DNA of 64,000 nucleotides from a virus: the IMG/VR virus record IMGVR_UViG_3300034283_001962, positions 32,001-96,000 of that record. One strand, given 5' to 3'. Shown here in pieces: positions 4,315-23,554 of the stretch (its first letter is position 1; each line of letters starts with the position of its first letter). The position numbers and the translations under genes are program-made. A model generated the notes under the pieces. The model was not told the DNA's origin and did no database searches. It saw only the letters and a list, made by a program, of their open reading frames with translations.

Positions 4315-4621
4315 TATACATTTGTAAGCTTTTAATAAAATTTAATATATTTTCAGAAGGGTTTTCAATTTTTTGAATCTCTAGTAACTTCTTTTCTTTT
4401 TTACGAATATCTATCTTTAGCTTTCGAACAGAAAATCTAAATACTCCAAACCCAGATAATTCTACAGTGGTACAAGAGTTAAATGCTTTAGTTGCATCTT
4501 TAAATATAAAGTTTATAACTTTATCTATTTCTATAGGTTTAATATCTAACTTAGAAGATAATCTATTAATTAATACTTCCTGAAGTTTATCTTTAGATAT
4601 AAGGTTATTTTCTAGATTCAT
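4271..4621 (-). CDS. HU/IHF-like DNA-binding protein
   Basis: VELSGFGVF motif and helical N-terminus typical of HU/IHF. Confidence 0.7.
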   Translation of the reverse strand: MNLENNLISKDKLQEVLINRLSSKLDIKPIEIDKVINFIFKDATKAFNSCTTVELSGFGVFRFSVRKLKIDIRKKEKKLLEIQKIENPSENILNFIKSLQMYIENAKTKINELEKN

Positions 4622-4625
4622 TTAA

Positions 4626-4976
4626 TTATAATTTTTTAATTAAACTTATATCTAAAGATATATCTCTATTTATAAAATCTAGGTTGATTTGGTGAACTAT
4701 TCTATATTTACCTTGAAATTTTTCTAATAAACCTATTTCTTTTAATTCAGATATCATATTATTGACAGAGTTAACTGAACTGTTATATTTAACAGAGAAG
4801 TCATTTTTGGCTGACAAAGAAGATATCGTACCTCTAATAGCCGTAAAAGCTAATAATTGAAGTTGTTTATTTGTTACTTTAATATTATTAACTAAACAGA
4901 TTATAGAATAATACTTTAGAGCTATATCTAAAGCTGATTCTTCTTGTTTTTTGATTTTTTGTACGATTAAAGTCAT
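4626..4976 (-). CDS. Winged-helix-like hypothetical protein
   Basis: SVNSVNNMISELKEIGLL...YRI pattern. Confidence 0.45.
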   Translation of the reverse strand: MTLIVQKIKKQEESALDIALKYYSIICLVNNIKVTNKQLQLLAFTAIRGTISSLSAKNDFSVKYNSSVNSVNNMISELKEIGLLEKFQGKYRIVHQINLDFINRDISLDISLIKKL

Positions 4977-5061
4977 CGTTCCTAATGTAATTAATTATGC
5001 AAAGATAGTGAAATTATAATATAAAGATATAGTTATATAATAACTTAATGCTATATTAAAC

Positions 5062-5090
5062 AAAAAAATCCTCCCTTTTGAGGAGGATTT
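5062..5090 (-). terminator. Intrinsic terminator closing tRNA operon 1
   Basis: AAATCCTCC/GGAGGATTT hairpin followed by a T-run on the minus strand. Confidence 0.75.
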
Positions 5091-5092
5091 AG

Positions 5093-5166
5093 AACACCTA
5101 GAAAGACTCGAACTTTCACTCTTTTGATCCGTAGTCAAAAGCTTTATCCAATTAAGCTATAGGTGC
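5093..5166 (-). tRNA. tRNA-Arg(ACG)
   Basis: Cloverleaf; anticodon arm TTTGA-CTACGGA-TCAAA. Confidence 0.9.
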
Positions 5167-5169
5167 AGA

Positions 5170-5243
5170 TGGGTGGAATTGGGATTCGAACCCAATCAAG
5201 TGATTCACAGTCACCCGTCAGAATCCAGTCTGAACGATTCCAC
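5170..5243 (-). tRNA. tRNA-His(GTG)
   Basis: Anticodon arm GGTGA-CTGTGAA-TCACT; G-1 and CCA encoded. Confidence 0.88.
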
Positions 5244-5245
5244 AG

Positions 5246-5317
5246 TTCCCTTATCTAGGCTCGAACTAGAACTACCAGAGTCAAAATCTGATGTGTTAAC
5301 CATTACACTATAAGGGA
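5246..5317 (-). tRNA. tRNA-Gln(TTG)
   Basis: Anticodon arm TCAGA-TTTTGAC-TCTGG. Confidence 0.9.
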
Positions 5318-5334
5318 ATAGCATACCATAAAAA

Positions 5335-5408
5335 TGGCACAGGTAGAGAGATTCGAACTCCCAACAGCAGTTTTGGAGACTGACATGATACCATTTCACC
5401 ATACCTGT
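5335..5408 (-). tRNA. tRNA-Trp(CCA)
   Basis: Anticodon loop CTCCAAA; CCA end encoded. Confidence 0.9.
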
Positions 5409-5413
5409 TTCTG

Positions 5414-5485
5414 TGGTAAGAAAGGGTAACGATCCCTTCTCCAAGGTTTTTCAGACCTTTGCTAATCCATCTCAGCTATCTTACC
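5414..5485 (-). tRNA. tRNA-Phe(GAA)
   Basis: Anticodon arm AAGGT-CTGAAAA-ACCTT; atypical T-loop ATCGTTA. Confidence 0.85.
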
Positions 5486-5494
5486 GTAATTTAA

Positions 5495-5568
5495 AGCATG
5501 TTGTACAAATTCTTCGTTTTCACATTGCAGGTGAATTAAGCCTATGTGTGCTGGCTGCGTAACATGTT
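5495..5568 (-). ncRNA. Putative small structured RNA with a Cys-type anticodon hairpin
   Basis: Terminal stem ACATGTT/AACATG, GCAGCCA motif, internal TTCAC-CTGCAAT-GTGAA hairpin; resembles units of the 26973-27398 array. Confidence 0.45.
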
Positions 5569-5598
5569 AAAAGCACTAACCAGATTCGAACTGGTGTG

Positions 5599-5668
5599 AA
5601 TCCAGTATGAGAATCGAACTCATTTCAATAGTTTTGCAGACTATTTGGCTTCCATAACCTCACTGGAT
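5599..5668 (-). tRNA. tRNA-Cys(GCA)
   Basis: Anticodon arm ATAGT-CTGCAAA-ACTAT. Confidence 0.85.
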
Positions 5669-5669
5669 A

Positions 5670-5772
5670 ATTTATACCAATTAAAATCTTTTGCCGTTTT
5701 TCTTCTATGACAATTTGCGCATCTTACATCACATTTTTCAATTTCATTTTTTACCTGATTTAAATCGGTCAT
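5670..5772 (-). pseudogene. HNH endonuclease C-terminal remnant
   Basis: Translates to MTDLNQVKNEIEKCDVRCANCHRRKTAKDFNWYK. Confidence 0.7.
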
Positions 5773-5783
5773 AGTGCTATTTG

Positions 5784-5855
5784 ATCCTCGTAAGGTACTC
5801 GAAACCTTTTCCCCAGTTTACAAGACTGGTGCATCACCATATATGCTTACAAGGA
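5784..5855 (-). tRNA. tRNA-Thr(TGT)
   Basis: Anticodon arm CCAGT-CTTGTAA-ACTGG. Confidence 0.88.
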
Positions 5856-5860
5856 ATATG

Positions 5861-5935
5861 TCGAGTAAACAGGAGTCGAACCTGCATGATGTCTTCACCC
5901 CAAATGAAGAGGCTTACCAGTTAGCCCATTACTCG
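5861..5935 (-). tRNA. tRNA-Pro(TGG)
   Basis: Anticodon arm CTTCA-TTTGGGG-TGAAG. Confidence 0.88.
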
Positions 5936-5947
5936 ATGCTATAAAAT

Positions 5948-5976
5948 AAAAAACCCCCGATTTTATGTCGGAGGGT
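5948..5976 (-). terminator. Attenuator terminator upstream of tRNA operon 1
   Basis: ACCCTCCGA-cataaaa-TCGGGGGT-TTTTT; its 5' arm can alternatively pair with GAGGGTGAA (6040-6048). Confidence 0.85.
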
Positions 5977-6012
5977 GAATAGACTTTTTTTAGTCCGTTA
6001 TGCACGAATAGT

Positions 6013-6105
6013 CTAATTTTTTATGACACATGTACATAGTTCACCCTCTCCACAGATACACTGCGGGGTAAAAGTAAACCACGTATGACGTACTATCTTT
6101 TTCAT
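6013..6105 (-). CDS. Leader peptide 1, MKKIVRHTWFTFTPQCICGEGELCTCVIKN
   Basis: 30-codon ORF between a promoter and a terminator; the sensor block matches the downstream tRNAs. Confidence 0.85.
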   Translation of the reverse strand: MKKIVRHTWFTFTPQCICGEGELCTCVIKN

Positions 6106-6109
6106 AACA

Positions 6110-6141
6110 CAAACATATGAAGAAATTCTGAAACTTCCAAA
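6110..6141 (-). promoter_or_regulatory. Bacteroidota primary-sigma promoter (TTTG-N20-TATGTTTG)
   Basis: Matches the TTTG-N19-21-TAnnTTTG consensus. Confidence 0.8.
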
Positions 6142-6154
6142 TTTATTTTTTTTG

Positions 6155-6225
6155 TTGGATAGGAGAGAATCGAACTCTCTTGCCTACGTTTTACAGACGT
6201 TGCTGGTTGCCCTGACCTCTACCCA
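6155..6225 (-). tRNA. tRNA-Tyr(GTA), short variable arm
   Basis: Anticodon arm ACGT-CTGTAAA-ACGT. Confidence 0.8.
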
Positions 6226-6230
6226 ATATG

Positions 6231-6319
6231 CGGAGAAAGTGAGACTCGAACTCACACTAGAGTTTTATCCCTAGAACAGTTTAGCAAACTGCTGCAGTAC
6301 CATTATGACTTATTCCTCC
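6231..6319 (-). tRNA. tRNA-Ser(GCT)
   Basis: Anticodon arm GCAGT-TTGCTAA-ACTGT; long variable arm. Confidence 0.9.
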
Positions 6320-6324
6320 AAATG

Positions 6325-6408
6325 CGGTGGTAACAGGAATCGAACCTGTATGGCTGTTACACCTTCAACGTTTTCAAGACGCATAAGCCCTCTCTATTGC
6401 GTACCACC
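6325..6408 (-). tRNA. tRNA-Ser(TGA)
   Basis: Anticodon loop CTTGAAA; long variable arm. Confidence 0.85.
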
Positions 6409-6413
6409 AATTG

Positions 6414-6487
6414 TAGCTCTGATGAGATTCGAACTCACACAAAACAGATTTTAAGTCTGCCGCCGTTACCAATTAGACCACAGAGCT
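6414..6487 (-). tRNA. tRNA-Leu(TAA), short variable arm
   Basis: Anticodon arm GCAGA-CTTAAAA-TCTGT. Confidence 0.87.
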
Positions 6488-6490
6488 ATG

Positions 6491-6566
6491 TACCCCTAGC
6501 GAGATTCGAACTCGCAAAACTCCTGATTCTAAGTCAGGCGACTTTACCTAATTTGCCCATAGAGGT
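6491..6566 (-). tRNA. tRNA-Leu(TAG), short variable arm
   Basis: Anticodon arm CCTGA-CTTAGAA-TCAGG. Confidence 0.87.
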
Positions 6567-6574
6567 ATATAAAT

Positions 6575-6604
6575 AAAAAAACCTAGCTCTTTTAGGAACT
6601 AGGC
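6575..6604 (-). terminator. Attenuator terminator upstream of tRNA operon 2
   Basis: GCCTAGTTC-ctaaaa-GAGCTAGGT-TTTTTT; 5' arm alternatively pairs with GGGAACAGG (6645-6653). Confidence 0.85.
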
Positions 6605-6629
6605 TTTAAGAAGTAGGTTAGAAAAAACC

Positions 6630-6707
6630 TTACTGTATATAATCCCTGTTCCCTTGATGAATCAAGAGCGATAAACTGGAATAATATGACAGTAATAGAT
6701 TTCTCAT
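6630..6707 (-). CDS. Leader peptide 2, MRNLLLSYYSSLSLLIHQGNRDYIQ
   Basis: 25-codon ORF with 12 consecutive Leu/Ser/Tyr codons ahead of the Leu/Ser/Tyr tRNAs. Confidence 0.85.
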   Translation of the reverse strand: MRNLLLSYYSSLSLLIHQGNRDYIQ

Positions 6708-6711
6708 TGGA

Positions 6712-7092
6712 TTATCCTTCTACAGAAGTTTCAGGTTCAGTTGGTTCTTCAACTGGATCTACTGGGGGTTCTACTACATCAGTAATAGTACCTTTAAGGT
6801 CAGCAATAGCTAGATCTAATTTATCAGCTACAGCTTGAATTTCTTGTGAAGTTACTGAACTAGCTAATTGAGCTTGAAGATCAGCTACTACAGCTTCAAG
6901 ATCAGTAATTACTTTTGCAATTTGTGCTTGTTCAGCATCAAGAGACAATTGAAGTTCATCTACTTTTGCTGAAAGTTCTTGAATAGTTGCCATTGTTTGT
7001 TTATTTTGTGATTGTATTAAAAATATTTTTTTTACTAAATATACAAGAAATCCTATTGTTAGACTTTGTAAGATTATTATAAATAATAGCAT
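6712..7092 (-). CDS. Coiled-coil protein with a possible N-terminal membrane anchor and acidic Pro-rich tail
   Basis: 126 aa; hydrophobic N-terminus; heptad pattern. Confidence 0.65.
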   Translation of the reverse strand: MLLFIIILQSLTIGFLVYLVKKIFLIQSQNKQTMATIQELSAKVDELQLSLDAEQAQIAKVITDLEAVVADLQAQLASSVTSQEIQAVADKLDLAIADLKGTITDVVEPPVDPVEEPTEPETSVEG

Positions 7093-7110
7093 AGTATATC
7101 TTTTCTACCA

Positions 7111-7142
7111 CAAATATAAACTTATAATTTGAAACTACCAAA
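7111..7142 (-). promoter_or_regulatory. Bacteroidota promoter (TTTG-N20-TATATTTG)
   Basis: Consensus match; drives the 126-aa ORF, leader 2 and tRNA operon 2. Confidence 0.8.
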
Positions 7143-7155
7143 TTAATTTAATATG

Positions 7156-7228
7156 TACTCCTTATTAGACTTGAACTAATAACTTCTTCCATGTAAGGGA
7201 AGCACTCTACCAATTGAGTTAAAGGAGC
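7156..7228 (-). tRNA. tRNA-Val(TAC)
   Basis: Anticodon arm CTTCC-CTTACAT-GGAAG. Confidence 0.9.
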
Positions 7229-7233
7229 AAAAG

Positions 7234-7307
7234 TGGAAGTCATGGGTATCGAACCCATCTCAGTTTGCTTGCAAAGCAATCTCGCCAGCCAAGGAACATG
7301 CACCCCC
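7234..7307 (-). tRNA. tRNA-Ala(TGC)
   Basis: Anticodon loop TTTGCAA; G-rich acceptor with a G.U pair; atypical D-arm. Confidence 0.8.
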
Positions 7308-7313
7308 AAAAAA

Positions 7314-7460
7314 TCAGGACTTTACGCCCTGATTAGTTAACTTAAAATAATCTGCTGCAGAAATCCGGTCTCGTACAAAAAGAGAAATAGGATTTGTACG
7401 AGCTGCAGCTTTTCTTTTCTTTTTGCCAAACTTACGTTGGCTTTTTACTTTCTGTGCCAT
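7314..7460 (-). CDS. Small basic protein MAQKVKSQRKFGKKKRKAAARTNPISLFVRDRISAADYFKLTNQGVKS
   Basis: 48-codon ORF inside the tRNA cluster, ending in a hairpin/T-run. Confidence 0.5.
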   Translation of the reverse strand: MAQKVKSQRKFGKKKRKAAARTNPISLFVRDRISAADYFKLTNQGVKS

Positions 7461-7536
7461 GTGAATACTTGGCTACTGTTTTGTCAGTAGTTACCGTATT
7501 CGGCTCATAGAATTCTTCATATTCATATTATTTAAG

Positions 7537-7609
7537 TTGGCATACTCAGACTCGAACTGAGGACTTCTGCAGTATCAGTGCAGTACTCTAACCACTGAGT
7601 TATACGCCA
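7537..7609 (-). tRNA. tRNA-Ile(GAT)
   Basis: Anticodon arm CTGCA-CTGATAC-TGCAG. Confidence 0.9.
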
Positions 7610-7614
7610 GTATG

Positions 7615-7689
7615 TTGACTCTATCGGATTCGAACCGATGACCTTAACGTTATGAGCGTTCTGCTACTAACCAACTGAGCTAAGAGTCA
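7615..7689 (-). tRNA. tRNA(CAT), probably Ile2 (lysidine) or elongator Met
   Basis: Anticodon loop CTCATAA. Confidence 0.85.
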
Positions 7690-7694
7690 AGAAG

Positions 7695-7767
7695 CCGAGA
7701 GTGGGAGGTTCGAACTCCGACCTTCACATCGACAGTGTGACATGCTCGCCATTACACTACACCCTCG
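7695..7767 (-). tRNA. tRNA-Asp(GTC)
   Basis: Anticodon arm TCACA-CTGTCGA-TGTGA. Confidence 0.88.
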
Positions 7768-7780
7768 TTTAAATTTATTG

Positions 7781-7853
7781 TACTCTCAACGGGGATTGAA
7801 CCCGTATTGACAGATTGAAAGTCTGTTATCCTGACCAATTAGATGATGAGAGC
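7781..7853 (-). tRNA. tRNA-Glu(TTC)
   Basis: Anticodon arm ACAGA-CTTTCAA-TCTGT. Confidence 0.9.
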
Positions 7854-7900
7854 AAAGCTCTTCACCCTCTTTTAGTGAATTTCTCATAATACTATTTTTG

Positions 7901-7974
7901 TGCAGTAAACAAGACTCGAACTTGCAACTTCCACCTTGGCAAGGTGGCACTCTAACCAATTGAGCTATTACTGC
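7901..7974 (-). tRNA. tRNA-Gly(GCC)
   Basis: Anticodon arm CCACC-TTGCCAA-GGTGG. Confidence 0.9.
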
Positions 7975-7975
7975 G

Positions 7976-8049
7976 TGGAGCAGGTAACCGGGATCGAACC
8001 GACATCAGAAGATTGGAAATCTCCTGCACTACCATTGTGCTATACCTGC
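7976..8049 (-). tRNA. tRNA-Gly(TCC)
   Basis: Anticodon arm GGAGA-TTTCCAA-TCTTC; CCA encoded. Confidence 0.9.
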
Positions 8050-8165
8050 ATTTCAGTTTTTCATGAGCCTTGTAGAACTGTAACTACCGCCGGACCTACT
8101 TTCTAGAATTTCCTCCGAACCCCTTTGCACCAGATTTTATATCTGGTGTGGTGCTACTGTTATCT

Positions 8166-8693
8166 TTAACCTACTTTCCTCAGTAATTCACTAAGTCTAA
8201 GTTCTGTGTAATCTTCTAATGGGATGACACTTAAAGCTTTCTTTCTGATAATGTGATCAGCTGCTTTTGTAGCTATCATTTGTCCACTTTTAAAGATCGG
8301 GACTTGGTTGATTCCTTTAGTCCATCCTTTAAAATCTTGTACCAGTTTTGATGACAGGGTTTTTTTGACATCTGCGAAATCAAACTCAAGCCCTTCAATA
8401 GAGATTGGTATCTCTCTACTGATAAGTTCTGATGTTTCGATTGTCTTAACCCCTTCTTCATATAATCTCAGGTACTCTGTTTTGTACCTTTTTTTCTCAT
8501 CATAATTGAATATATAATGAGCACCTCTTAAACCGTAACGGAAAACTACTACTGTAACAAACTTGGTAAGCTTGTAGTCCTGGGAGTCCGTACCTATCCT
8601 AATAGTCAAGTTGTTGTGTTCATTGACTTGTTCTAGAATATGATCTACCAGATTTACTATAGTACCATCCTCTTTTCTGAAGTACTTTTCCAT
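8166..8693 (-). CDS. RNase H-like YkuK/DUF458-family protein (likely start MEKYF at 8693)
   Basis: IGTDSQ...RLYEE...ATKAADH motifs; the annotated upstream start overlaps tRNA-Met. Confidence 0.75.
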   Translation of the reverse strand: MEKYFRKEDGTIVNLVDHILEQVNEHNNLTIRIGTDSQDYKLTKFVTVVVFRYGLRGAHYIFNYDEKKRYKTEYLRLYEEGVKTIETSELISREIPISIEGLEFDFADVKKTLSSKLVQDFKGWTKGINQVPIFKSGQMIATKAADHIIRKKALSVIPLEDYTELRLSELLRKVG

Positions 8694-8706
8694 AACGGTT
8701 TTGTTG

Positions 8707-8780
8707 ATGCAGGGGTGGGCCGACGATCCCACGTATTTCTAGGTTATGAGCCTAGCGAGTCACCTCTACTCTACCCTGCA
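8707..8780 (-). tRNA. tRNA-Met(CAT), possibly initiator-like; atypical T-loop
   Basis: Anticodon arm CTAGG-CTCATAA-CCTAG. Confidence 0.8.
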
Positions 8781-8790
8781 GTTTATAATG

Positions 8791-8862
8791 CGTTCCCACC
8801 AAGACTCGAACTTGGATCAAATGATTAACAGTCACCCGTACTAGCCTTTGTACTATAGGAAC
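8791..8862 (-). tRNA. tRNA-Asn(GTT)
   Basis: Anticodon arm GGTGA-CTGTTAA-TCATT. Confidence 0.9.
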
Positions 8863-8870
8863 ATTTAGTT

Positions 8871-8940
8871 GTAGCCCCAACAAGGATCGAACTCAGCAAT
8901 TGTTTTTTAAATTATAATGTAGTTTTCTATGACAATTACT
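8871..8940 (-). pseudogene. tRNA 3' fragment plus HNH remnant (CSNCHRKLHYN)
   Basis: Isolated GTTCGATCC T-arm half; CxNCH motif on the minus strand. Confidence 0.5.
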
Positions 8941-8941
8941 G

Positions 8942-9013
8942 CAGGGTTACGCAGAATCGAACTGCGACTGAAAGATTAGAAGTCTCTCGTTCTATCCATT
9001 AAACTATAACCCC
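8942..9013 (-). tRNA. tRNA-Arg(TCT)
   Basis: Anticodon arm AGAGA-CTTCTAA-TCTTT. Confidence 0.9.
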
Positions 9014-9071
9014 ATTATATTTAAATTCTCAATAACCTTTGTAAATACAACACATTATTTAATTAAACAAG

Positions 9072-9144
9072 TTCCCCCGCTGAGATTCGAACTCAGCCCC
9101 ATAGGTTAAAAGCCTATTGCCTACTACCAGTTTGCTACAGGGGA
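9072..9144 (-). tRNA. tRNA-Lys(TTT)
   Basis: Anticodon arm ATAGG-CTTTTAA-CCTAT. Confidence 0.9.
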
Positions 9145-9148
9145 TTAT

Positions 9149-9189
9149 AAAAACGAAAAACCCCTGTACCGTTTTACTGGCTCAGGGGT
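9149..9189 (-). terminator. Attenuator terminator upstream of tRNA operon 3
   Basis: ACCCCTG...CAGGGGT-TTTTCGTTTTT; 5' arm GACCCCTGAGCC alternatively pairs with GGCTCAGTGGGTC (9238-9250). Confidence 0.85.
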
Positions 9190-9220
9190 CTTAAAATTGC
9201 TATGTTAAAATTAACTTTTC

Positions 9221-9310
9221 TTAAGTTATAGCAAAAGGACCCACTGAGCCGAACTTCTCATTCGCTCTCCCGATATTATCTACTATAATATATGATGGTC
9301 TTGTTTGCAC
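9221..9310 (-). CDS. Leader peptide 3 (GTG start), MQTRPSYIIVDNIGRANEKFGSVGPFAIT
   Basis: 29-codon ORF; the block IIVDNIGRANEK matches the downstream tRNA set. Confidence 0.82.
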   Translation of the reverse strand: MQTRPSYIIVDNIGRANEKFGSVGPFAIT

Positions 9311-9327
9311 TTTAAAATTTTGAATCA

Positions 9328-9359
9328 CAATATTAAGAAATCTTTTTGATACTACCAAA
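9328..9359 (-). promoter_or_regulatory. Bacteroidota promoter (TTTG-N20-TAATATTG)
   Basis: One mismatch to TAnnTTTG; shares the TTTGGTAGT upstream box with the other promoters. Confidence 0.7.
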
Positions 9360-9363
9360 TTTT

Positions 9364-9828
9364 TTATTTTATTTCTTTTTCTGGTTCTGTTTTAAGCTGA
9401 TTTATATGAAAAATTTGTTCATAAACTGAGTCTGATCGCAATTTTGATAATTTTTTTACATGTTCATTAATCTTTTCTTTAAACATTTTCCTATTCCAAA
9501 TACACCAATATGTTTGAGCATCTCCTTTTATGTATATTTCAGTAAGATCAAATCCAAATTGTTCAATATCTTGAGCTTCTCTACCAGGTGTGTACCATTC
9601 TCCATAACCTATTATTGATTCATGAGGAAAAGAAACCATTCCTACTACTCTATCTATATCTTCGTCATCTTCTTCCTCATCATTAACTAAACCTAATTCT
9701 CTAAGTTTATTCTTACTTGCATCTTTCTTTTTACTAATAGATATTAATACTGGAAACTCAAATAGGTTATCTGTAAAATTAATATCAGGTTCGACAAGTA
9801 TTCCTTGTGGAGTTTTAGTTATGGACAT
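9364..9828 (-). CDS. Hypothetical protein
   Basis: 154-aa ORF. Confidence 0.6.
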   Translation of the reverse strand: MSITKTPQGILVEPDINFTDNLFEFPVLISISKKKDASKNKLRELGLVNDEEEDDEDIDRVVGMVSFPHESIIGYGEWYTPGREAQDIEQFGFDLTEIYIKGDAQTYWCIWNRKMFKEKINEHVKKLSKLRSDSVYEQIFHINQLKTEPEKEIK

Positions 9829-10414
9829 ATAAAACTTTTGGTATTTTAATTATATTTTCTTGTGGAAACTTTATTTTAAACTCCTCTACATATTCTCCAT
9901 CTGCTGCATAACTTGTATTTAATACAATCTGTTGAGCCAGATCATTTCTAGTCGCAAATGCTCCCATATCAATCTGATTAAATCCAGGTGAACATTTAAA
10001 GTAACTGTAATCATAATGACTATGTACCATATCCCAATAGATCATTCCTGGCTGTGTATAACTATTAATTGTTTTTTCAAATTCACTTACAAATGTAGGT
10101 ACATAGTAATTATCATCCCCACTCATAATTACATACTTTCCTCTACATTGTTGTTTACCTAATTCTCTAGGTGTATGTCCCCAATCATTATATCGCTTAT
10201 CCAAGTAAAGTACACGTATCCTTTTATCTATACCTTTTACTATATCAAAAAGCATACCTCTAAACTGATCTGAATAATCCAATCCATCCACTACCACCAG
10301 TGCTTCCCAATTCTCATTTGTCTGACATAATAAAGCACATAAAGTACTGCGTAATTCATTTATCCTATTATAAGTAGGTAACACAAAGCTTACCAATGGC
10401 TGATTATTTATCAT
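9815..10414 (-). CDS. GT2-family glycosyltransferase
   Basis: VSFVLPTYNR, VVVDG and GDDNY motifs. Confidence 0.85.
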   Translation of the reverse strand: MINNQPLVSFVLPTYNRINELRSTLCALLCQTNENWEALVVVDGLDYSDQFRGMLFDIVKGIDKRIRVLYLDKRYNDWGHTPRELGKQQCRGKYVIMSGDDNYYVPTFVSEFEKTINSYTQPGMIYWDMVHSHYDYSYFKCSPGFNQIDMGAFATRNDLAQQIVLNTSYAADGEYVEEFKIKFPQENIIKIPKVLYVHN

Positions 10415-11617: not shown

Positions 11618-11650
11618 CAAAGTTAGAGGGTTTTATCTATAACTTCCAAA
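11618..11650 (-). promoter_or_regulatory. Bacteroidota promoter (TTTG...TAACTTTG) at the head of the leftward arm
   Basis: Consensus match. Confidence 0.65.
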
Positions 11651-23510: not shown

Positions 23511-23554
23511 TGTACAAAAATACACAATGTACACATAACTACCAAATTATTTTT

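Follow-up and report, generated by a model that had tools for sequence, protein, structure and literature searches.

Why would a phage place a short open reading frame (ORF) packed with leucine, serine and tyrosine codons, followed by an intrinsic terminator, directly ahead of a block of tRNA genes? The arrangement occurs in a crAss-like phage from lake water, the full record of which spans 118,407 bp (~31% G+C) and encodes a crAss-type large terminase (TerL), a DNA polymerase and a ribonucleotide reductase. The stretch that we analysed, hereafter the window, comprises 64,000 nucleotides of that record, and coordinates refer to it. Using ARAGORN with default settings, we identified 23 tRNA genes, all on the minus strand, between positions 5092 and 9144; a relaxed threshold added Ala(tgc) and Ser(tga), for a total of 25 tRNAs. 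One other relaxed call, Tyr(ata), overlaps tRNA-Cys; we regard it as spurious, and it is excluded from the 25. The tRNA genes are organized in three units, A, B and C, each consisting of a leader, a terminator and a tRNA block, and unit B is the one studied here. We use WIN for the window phage, JY46 for Leptolyngbya phage Lbo-JY46, and the suffixes _A, _B and _C for the units.

Anatomy of unit B

A preliminary description of this DNA had proposed that unit B consists of a leader, a terminator and tRNA genes, and all three elements lie on the minus strand at the positions first given for them. The leader ORF, MRNLLLSYYSSLSLLIHQGNRDYIQ (6707..6630), starts with ATG and has 25 codons followed by TAA. 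Its product can be written MRN-LLLSYYSSLSLL-IHQGNRDYIQ, where the hyphens enclose the sensor run, i.e. 12 successive Leu/Ser/Tyr codons that make up codons 4-15 (6698..6663). Reading the codons gave CTA TTA CTG TCA TAT TAT TCC AGT TTA TCG CTC TTG, exactly as originally reported, with leucine written in five different codons, serine in four and TAT occurring twice, so that the codon diversity ascribed to the run is real. The motif AAGGA (6719..6715, minus strand), a possible ribosome-binding site, lies 7 nt 5' of the leader ATG.

We assessed how unusual the run is by scanning the whole 118,407-bp genome in six frames. Leu, Ser and Tyr codons account for a fraction of 0.258 of positions, and there are seven runs of at least nine such codons genome-wide; the longest is the run of 12 in unit B, and the runner-up has 10. 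We also compared the run with a codon usage reference built from 67 ORFs with lengths of 150 aa or more (27,399 codons). CTC, CTG, TCC and TCG each contribute only 2-4.5% of their own codon family in this reference, and the run as a whole is enriched in rare synonymous codons (p = 0.0009 for synonymous draws that are as rare or rarer). The same enrichment was detected for the runs of unit C (p = 0.0048) and unit A (p = 0.0079). As for diversity, the chance probability is p = 0.04 for at least five Leu codons in six draws, and p = 0.08 for four Ser codons in four draws; all four Leu/Ser isoacceptor classes are touched in 75% of draws.

The intrinsic terminator (6571..6607, minus strand; -14.4 kcal/mol) has a 12-bp stem, a 6-nt loop and a T7 run; a terminator scan placed the hairpin and its T7 tail at 6607..6578. 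It begins 22 nt past the leader stop codon and ends 10 nt ahead of tRNA-Leu(tag), and its stem is AU-rich, with GC pairs at 4 of 12 positions. The tRNA block (6154..6566) consists of Leu(tag) (6566..6490), Leu(taa) (6487..6413), Ser(tga) (6411..6324), Ser(gct) (6319..6230) and Tyr(gta) (6225..6154), all on the minus strand. Four of these are default ARAGORN predictions. Ser(tga) is a low-scoring gene that was called only at the relaxed threshold and has a sub-threshold, tRNA-Sec-like match in Rfam. The claim that these five tRNA genes, and no others, follow the leader holds up to position 6141, with the Ser(tga) call being weak. Only tRNA genes lie behind the terminator of unit B, and none of the blocks contains a biosynthetic or synthetase gene.

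Upstream of the leader is an ORF of 126 aa (6712..7092, minus strand) that ends with TAA at 6714..6712. Its predicted protein has a hydrophobic N-terminal stretch, a coiled-coil-like middle and an acidic, Pro-rich tail; it has no match in PHROG, and a Pfam search gave only sub-threshold coiled-coil hits. The coordinates bear out the earlier observation that the leader ATG (6707) lies 4 nt past the stop codon of this ORF. Together with the AAGGA motif, this spacing would be consistent with translational coupling between the two ORFs. We considered that the leader might be an extension of the 126-aa ORF made by stop-codon read-through, but the two ORFs are in different frames and we therefore discarded this idea.

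Sister units and related phages

Units A and C of the same phage have the same components as unit B. Unit C (5954..6105, minus strand) has the leader MKKIV-RHTWFTFTPQC-ICGEGELCTCVIKN (6105..6013, from the ORF list), in which ICG directly follows the run, and a terminator at 5974..5954. Its block contains Pro, Thr, Cys, Phe, Trp, Gln, His and Arg(acg) tRNAs. All eight of these amino acids are contained in RHTWFTFTPQC, and only one run of the same amino-acid set anywhere in the genome is longer. Unit A (9157..9289, minus strand) has the layout ..SY-IIVDNIGRANEK-FGS.., with the sensor run IIVDNIGRANEK at 9289..9254, no in-frame ATG, a leader stop codon at 9223..9221 and a terminator at 9192..9157; it precedes a block of tRNAs running from Lys to Val. 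The length of the unit A run is not informative alone, since its amino-acid set is common (221 runs of at least nine codons genome-wide). The sensor of unit B mixes three amino acids and those of the sister units mix 7-11.

To find relatives, we compared positions 5900-7100 with a phage collection using blastn, and detected nothing beyond tRNA-sized matches (29 records). A scan of viral contigs with TerL alone yielded one close relative, L001, with no tRNA block near its TerL gene; a metagenome scan recovered this contig once more, and a scan with the RNase H-like protein alone yielded no relatives. Contigs from four DNA sequencing runs were fragmentary and barely covered the leader. TerL protein relatives are abundant, with 1811 at E <= 1e-60, many of them on contigs of 112-130 kb. 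The nearest cultured phage by TerL is Lbo-JY46 (PP438436.1; 37% identity), in which a syntenic tRNA cluster lies upstream of TerL. A TerL alignment search identified about 20 closer loci in IMG/VR, and we scanned 22 loci with ARAGORN at default settings. We detected tRNA genes in eight of the 22 (L053, L052, L048, L045, L047, L038, L039 and L016, the last being Lbo-JY46). L053 is a 124,983-bp record with a TerL that is 58% identical and a full tRNA cluster, and L052 is a 5.6-kb fragment with block C. L048 has nine tRNA genes, and L045 and L047 have two each, with a third, Arg(tct), in L047 at the relaxed threshold; these three tRNA-bearing relatives have no codon-matched leaders. L038 and L039 each have a single tRNA-Met, and crAss-like loci with 28% TerL identity have at most one tRNA-Met. 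Searching with DNA patterns, we matched leader C only in the contig of L053 and in L052; a 15-base pattern for leader B was unspecific, with at least 117 chance matches. Thus, our comparative set consists of three complete clusters (WIN, L053 and Lbo-JY46) and one fragment (L052), with ten leaders in all.

The leaders of unit B in the two complete relatives are MFN-LLSYYSSSLLL-HRQAGYSM in L053 and MKNFNT-YYSLSLSLS-QPTQELYLCAY in JY46, and both precede Leu(tag), Leu(taa) and Ser(tga). Those of unit A are MFYS-IVDNGIVRGAEK-SAPGIPLSAN in L053 and MINS-IDIRNIDIVCAEGVNKC-SCG.. in JY46, and those of unit C are MNKV-FRHTWFTFCPQP-GKGVVMYV in L053, MNN-RQHTWFTFCPQPTW-GRVDLYV in L052 and MKI-TRQHTQFWFPT-GTGLGML in JY46. 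For each of the nine leaders in the complete clusters, the longest run drawn from the amino-acid set of a single block is the one for the leader's own block. As read from the sequences, leader composition tracks the tRNA content of the leader's own block across the relatives, with exceptions in JY46_B and JY46_A. The C runs of WIN, L053 and L052 contain a Cys codon, and the corresponding C blocks contain tRNA-Cys. Block C of JY46 (Pro, Thr, Phe, Gln, His, Arg and Trp) has no tRNA-Cys, and the JY46_C leader has no Cys codon; in this phage tRNA-Cys heads block A, and the JY46_A leader has gained Cys codons. Arginine is encoded by AGA wherever tRNA-Arg(tct) lies downstream (the three A leaders) and by CGT wherever tRNA-Arg(acg) does (the four C leaders). 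Given the codon usage of the window phage, the probability of such a split in seven of seven leaders is ~0.003. Relative to the others, the leaders of JY46 have a scrambled residue order and a conserved composition.

Of the two exceptions, JY46_B has two TAT and two AGT codons, and JY46 lacks a Tyr or Ser(gct) tRNA anywhere; its sole tRNA outside the cluster is a Leu. JY46_A has two Val codons and no clear tRNA-Val, the only candidate being an odd tRNA with an ACA anticodon loop at the position of Val(tac) in L053. These data bear on the proposal, made from the unit B run, that synonymous diversity allows individual isoacceptors to be monitored, rather than amino-acid supply. We find it partly upheld: the AGA/CGT split and the rare codons in the run speak for it, and it is weakened by the chance expectation for touching all four Leu/Ser classes and by the TAT and AGT codons that JY46_B has without the cognate tRNAs. 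As a separate observation, the core HTWFTF of the C leader is kept as a peptide in three phages.

The geometry of the units is conserved. In all ten, the run ends 21-45 nt before the leader stop codon, the terminator starts 21-38 nt after it, and the first tRNA gene begins 3-15 nt past the terminator; predicted terminator energies range from -9.7 to -19.3 kcal/mol. A promoter-like motif, TTTGG-N-TAtaTTTG, has 13 matches in the genome of the window phage, compared with a mean of ~4.4 in 20 shuffles. It lies 3-8 nt before the leader ATG in L053_B, L053_C, L052_C, JY46_B, JY46_C and WIN_C; for the B leaders of L053 and JY46 the motif has the form TTTGG-N-TAnnTTTG, and hence the mRNAs that begin with these leaders would be nearly leaderless. 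WIN_B differs in that its motif (7111..7142, minus strand), the sole candidate promoter of the unit, precedes the 126-aa ORF, so that the leader lies behind a protein gene instead of directly behind a promoter. It appears that the 126-aa gene was inserted between promoter and leader. Two motif scans detected no promoter-like site on the minus strand from 6707 to 6154, and the next site 3' of the block is at 6141. Since the gap between terminator and first tRNA is too short for a promoter and contains no promoter-like site, expression of the tRNA genes would depend on read-through of the terminator.

Predicted alternative RNA structures

Attenuation is described for pheL, in a passage of PMC3082878, as a choice among 1:2, 2:3 and 3:4 pairings, and the equivalent elements can be recognized in unit B. 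The 159-nt region folds more stably than expected (z = -4.7; 0 of 200 shuffles as good). Both the minimum free energy and centroid structures contain a 1:2 hairpin (6631..6694, minus strand) in which the sensor codons are paired with the 3' part of the leader ORF; therefore, the predicted default in the absence of a ribosome is termination. The candidate 5' strand of the antiterminator is region 2, GGAACAGGGAUUAU (6639..6652, minus strand), which contains GGGAACAGG and has its partner at 6609..6596. The pairing of GGGAACAGG with CCTAGTTCC that had been suggested for the antiterminator does exist, but it is weak, with a duplex energy of -7.1 kcal/mol that was equalled or bettered by 262 of 1000 shuffles. 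In nascent RNA, antiterminator formation in WIN_B would gain -10.1 kcal/mol, compared with -14.4 kcal/mol for the terminator, and hence the antiterminator could act only kinetically. Attenuation of trp is likewise kinetic. In equilibrium folds of WIN_B, the terminator prevails in 10 of 11 states (no ribosome plus 10 A-site positions). Without a ribosome, the 5' arm of the terminator is paired upstream with a probability of 0.16 in WIN_B, as against 0.48-0.99 in the other nine units.

The segment of the leader ORF that follows the run can pair with the 5' arm of the terminator in each of the ten units. We compared each duplex with 1000 shuffles. The number of shuffles that were as good or better was 0 for WIN_A (-23.3 kcal/mol), WIN_C (-15.1 kcal/mol) and L053_A, 1 for L053_B, 3 for JY46_C, 10 for L053_C, 39 for JY46_B, 51 for JY46_A, 132 for L052_C and 262 for WIN_B. 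Six of the 10 antiterminators thus outdo at least 99% of shuffles, and eight outdo at least 94%. As a cross-control, we paired every leader tail with every terminator arm; in five of ten units, no other tail binds the arm as well as the tail of the same unit, and the tail of WIN_B ranks fourth of the ten on its own terminator arm.

We then masked the footprint of a ribosome and folded the nascent transcript as far as the loop of the terminator. In all ten leaders, the 5' arm of the terminator is predicted to be already paired when the A site is in the run, and to be released when the ribosome is past the end of the run. For WIN_B, pairing of the arm falls from 0.71-0.72 for a ribosome within the run to 0.10 when it has moved on by five codons, and is 0.17 when it reaches the stop codon. 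Among the five units for which the switch score was compared with 200 shuffles, it was matched by none for L053_B, JY46_B and WIN_A, by one for WIN_C and by 17 for WIN_B. The alternative structure of WIN_B is the weakest of the ten and, taken alone, does not rise above chance, whereas the homologue L053_B and the sister units WIN_A and WIN_C show a clear antiterminator. What speaks for WIN_B being a switch is chiefly its homology and architecture, and less so its own fold.

Probable attenuation of tRNA genes and its alternatives

We conclude that unit B is probably a ribosome-mediated, leader-peptide transcription attenuator that gates five phage tRNA genes. This was the reading of the preliminary description, and it draws its support mainly from comparison: Leu/Ser/Tyr leaders followed by terminators precede Leu/Leu/Ser(/Tyr) tRNAs in two relatives, and the sister leaders A and C of the same phage match their own tRNA blocks. 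The anatomy, the statistics, the conservation and covariation among relatives and the predicted structural switch are results of the analysis; from these we infer that ribosomes translate the leader, that they do so in step with transcription, and that a shortage of tRNA is what the unit responds to. Transcription would start at the promoter-like site 5' of the 126-aa ORF, and the 25-codon leader would be translated either by re-initiation 4 nt past the upstream stop codon or by entry at AAGGA. When charged Leu, Ser and Tyr tRNAs are plentiful, the ribosome would reach the leader tail and stop codon and mask region 2; the terminator hairpin would then form, and RNA polymerase would halt 10 nt before tRNA-Leu. 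Slow decoding of the mostly rare codons would instead stall the ribosome in the run and leave region 2 free to pair with the 5' arm of the terminator. This antiterminator pairing would allow polymerase to read through, and the Leu, Leu, Ser, Ser and Tyr tRNAs would be made. Charged by host enzymes, the new tRNAs would relieve the stall, such that the phage would exert negative-feedback control over its own tRNA supply. The loop would be self-limiting, since the products of the unit are the molecules that it senses. The shortage that triggers the response could come from a host anticodon nuclease, from host shut-off, or from a codon demand of late genes that exceeds supply. More tentatively, and with rather less confidence than doubt, we suggest that the three units together form a closed-loop, isoacceptor-resolved tRNA homeostat, in which three independent sensors continuously test-translate the codons of their own tRNA blocks and each induce only the block that is depleted, making the tRNA genes an inducible counter-measure and not constitutive cargo.

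The weak antiterminator of WIN_B raises the question of whether its terminator is simply constitutive and leaky, a fixed valve that ends most transcripts of the 126-aa gene and passes an unchanging share of them on to the tRNA genes, with the leader a decayed relic. Failure of the WIN_B antiterminator in three controls (262/1000, 17/200 and fourth of ten) is what such decay would look like, and the position of WIN_B behind a gene, where its homologues lie directly behind a promoter, and the AU-rich terminator stem (4 of 12 GC pairs) also fit. However, the ORF, the unbroken 12-codon run, its bias towards rare codons, the strong 1:2 hairpin and the conserved spacing are all intact, whereas decay would be expected to have erased them; arm pairing also still shows the predicted switch, falling from 0.71 to 0.10-0.17. 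We consider a fixed valve unlikely. It is also conceivable that leader translation acts not on termination but on the processing or stability of the precursor RNA, through RNase access or Rho, or on the timing of tRNA release. The codon match reveals only that decoding is read out, and the output step is the inferred part of the model; moreover, crAss-like phages encode polymerases of their own. Nevertheless, a canonical hairpin and U-run stand immediately before the first tRNA in 10 of 10 units, and a complementarity between tail and arm that beats at least 94% of shuffles in 8 of 10 is a specific signature of a terminator/antiterminator pair, leaving processing or release quite improbable as the output.

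An attenuator could be real and still measure something else. To a ribosome, a missing tRNA and an uncharged one are indistinguishable, and the known leader-peptide attenuators all respond to amino-acid supply, so unit B might be a classical starvation sensor that uses charged tRNA as a proxy for Leu/Ser/Tyr supply, with the tRNA genes as co-regulated cargo. Yet extra tRNA is of no help in amino-acid starvation, the blocks are devoid of biosynthetic and synthetase genes, and almost every amino acid is represented in the three leaders taken together, with each leader next to its own tRNAs; the split between Arg isoacceptors likewise argues for design at the level of tRNA. We regard a starvation sensor as very unlikely. 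Finally, we rate as highly improbable that the short ORFs encode functional small peptides or arise by chance, the match to tRNA sets being coincidence or a by-product of composition. LLLSYYSSLSLLI could resemble a hydrophobic segment, and conservation of the HTWFTF core in three phages is what a functional peptide would predict. Against this, the unit B run is the genome's longest of its kind and lies exactly at its own tRNA block, and in three phages the division of amino acids among the three leaders mirrors that among the three tRNA blocks. The leaders of Lbo-JY46 keep composition while scrambling order, and the Arg split (7/7) and Cys covariation occur at the level of codons and tRNAs, not of peptides.

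Leader-peptide attenuators include trpL, hisL and leuL, the multivalent thrL and ilvL, and the pheST attenuator (pheM). To our knowledge, all those described regulate genes for amino-acid biosynthesis or for synthetases. Unit B shares with the attenuators of amino-acid operons a short leader ORF in which regulatory codons are clustered, an intrinsic terminator ahead of the downstream genes, a candidate pairing between the 3' part of the leader and the 5' arm of the terminator, a 1:2 hairpin and rare sensor codons. It differs in that it would regulate tRNAs, such that feedback would be directly by the product, in being carried by a phage, and in mixing three amino acids in its sensor. Because only tRNA genes lie downstream, unit B falls outside the described attenuator families. 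No Rfam amino-acid leader family matched at its gathering threshold, and we excluded these families; sub-threshold matches were obtained for Phe_leader (24.3 bits, cut-off 55) at 5060..5124 of the window and for Thr_leader (25.0 and 23.4 bits, cut-off 55) at two JY46 terminators. T-box riboswitches are comparable in that the state of one particular tRNA decides between a terminator and an antiterminator. Unlike unit B, they bind uncharged tRNA directly via one specifier codon, form a large structured RNA and involve no translation. We ruled out a T-box, since no match was detected at E <= 1 in positions 4500..10000 and unit B has an ORF with 12 sensor codons. In full-text searches of freely accessible papers, we found no published case of leader-peptide attenuation of tRNA genes. 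The mechanism is known, and what appears new is the regulated target, tRNA genes, together with a multivalent sensor matched to its block.

Synthetic biology could draw on the leaders as compact sensors that report translation speed for several amino acids at once. Both Lbo-JY46 and its host, Leptolyngbya boryana, are available as cultures, which opens our reading to bench experiments. They also provide a read-out, from sequence only, of the codons for which each phage tRNA is meant, for example AGA as opposed to CGT. If our reading is correct, unit B would be the first instance of leader-peptide attenuation in which the sensed molecule is itself the output. The purpose of phage tRNA genes is a matter of debate, between codon compensation and the replacement of tRNAs destroyed by host defences (eLife 2023, PMC10264068; Nat Commun 2024, PMC11555353). 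A phage with such units would be measuring its tRNA supply, and this would favour supply on demand.

Proposed attenuator units flanking the Leu/Ser/Tyr block

Two probable sister attenuators lie on the minus strand on either side of the unit that precedes the Leu/Ser/Tyr tRNA block, each ahead of a tRNA block of its own. In unit C (leader 6013..6105, terminator 5954..5974), the leader encodes the run RHTWFTFTPQC, in which all eight amino acids of the downstream tRNA block (Pro, Thr, Cys, Phe, Trp, Gln, His and Arg) are represented. The 5' arm of the terminator is complementary to GAGGGUGAA in the leader tail, with a pairing energy of -15.1 kcal/mol that none of 1000 shuffles equalled. At window position 6090 (plus strand), a single contig from a lake metagenome (run X8; depth 3.6) carries A in place of the window's G. 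With this variant, the sensor run of leader C opens with TGT (Cys) instead of CGT (Arg), and Cys likewise belongs to the block C set of amino acids.

Unit A (9157..9289, minus strand) places a sensor run, IIVDNIGRANEK, and an antiterminator upstream of the Lys-to-Val tRNA block, and the predicted antiterminator is strong (-23.3 kcal/mol). Since leader A contains no in-frame ATG, its start codon may be GTG or ATT. The corresponding leader of Lbo-JY46, a cultured Leptolyngbya phage, has Val codons, and a clear tRNA-Val is absent. At L016 2168..2241 this phage carries a tRNA whose anticodon loop, CTACAAA, contains ACA; it occupies the place of the Val(tac) tRNA of L053, an IMG/VR relative, whose loop (CTTACAA) is distinguished from it by a single T.

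A promoter-like motif ahead of the leaders

The motif TTTG-N18-21-TAnnTTTG, which resembles the Bacteroidota -33/-7 promoter, occurs 13 times in the whole genome, as against about 4.4 times in shuffles; example sites are at window positions 7142..7111, 6141..6110, 23546..23515 and 11650..11618. Because the motif is located only a few bases upstream of the leader ATGs, its placement suggests that the leader mRNAs are near-leaderless. It is also present in Lbo-JY46, for which a cyanobacterium is recorded as host.

Composition of the tRNA cluster

Bacterial Leu and Tyr tRNAs usually carry a long variable arm. This arm is missing from the Leu(tag), Leu(taa) and Tyr(gta) tRNAs at window 6154..6566, which are 77, 75 and 72 nt long, respectively. 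In L053 the Tyr tRNA measures 86 nt, and the Lbo-JY46 genome contains, at another location, an additional tRNA-Leu of 87 nt.

Open reading frames, all on the minus strand, are interspersed among the window tRNAs. An RNase H-like protein (8169..8693; PF04308, E = 9.5e-11) is shared with Lbo-JY46 (L016 4848..5327), at a different position between the tRNAs. Between tRNA-Thr and tRNA-Cys, and overlapping the start of the latter, lies a 43-aa ORF (5641..5772) with a CANCHRRK motif, which resembles an HNH nuclease remnant; homing-endonuclease genes are intact among the Lbo-JY46 tRNAs. A very basic 48-aa ORF (MAQKVKSQRKFGKKKRK...; 7314..7460), between tRNA-Ile and tRNA-Ala, has no Pfam match.

Leaders and tRNA arrays among relatives

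Codon-matched leaders are absent from three IMG/VR relatives (L048, L045 and L047) that have 2-9 scattered tRNAs upstream of the large terminase gene; in the majority of the remaining close relatives, this region is devoid of tRNAs. Codon-matched leaders accompany large tRNA arrays.
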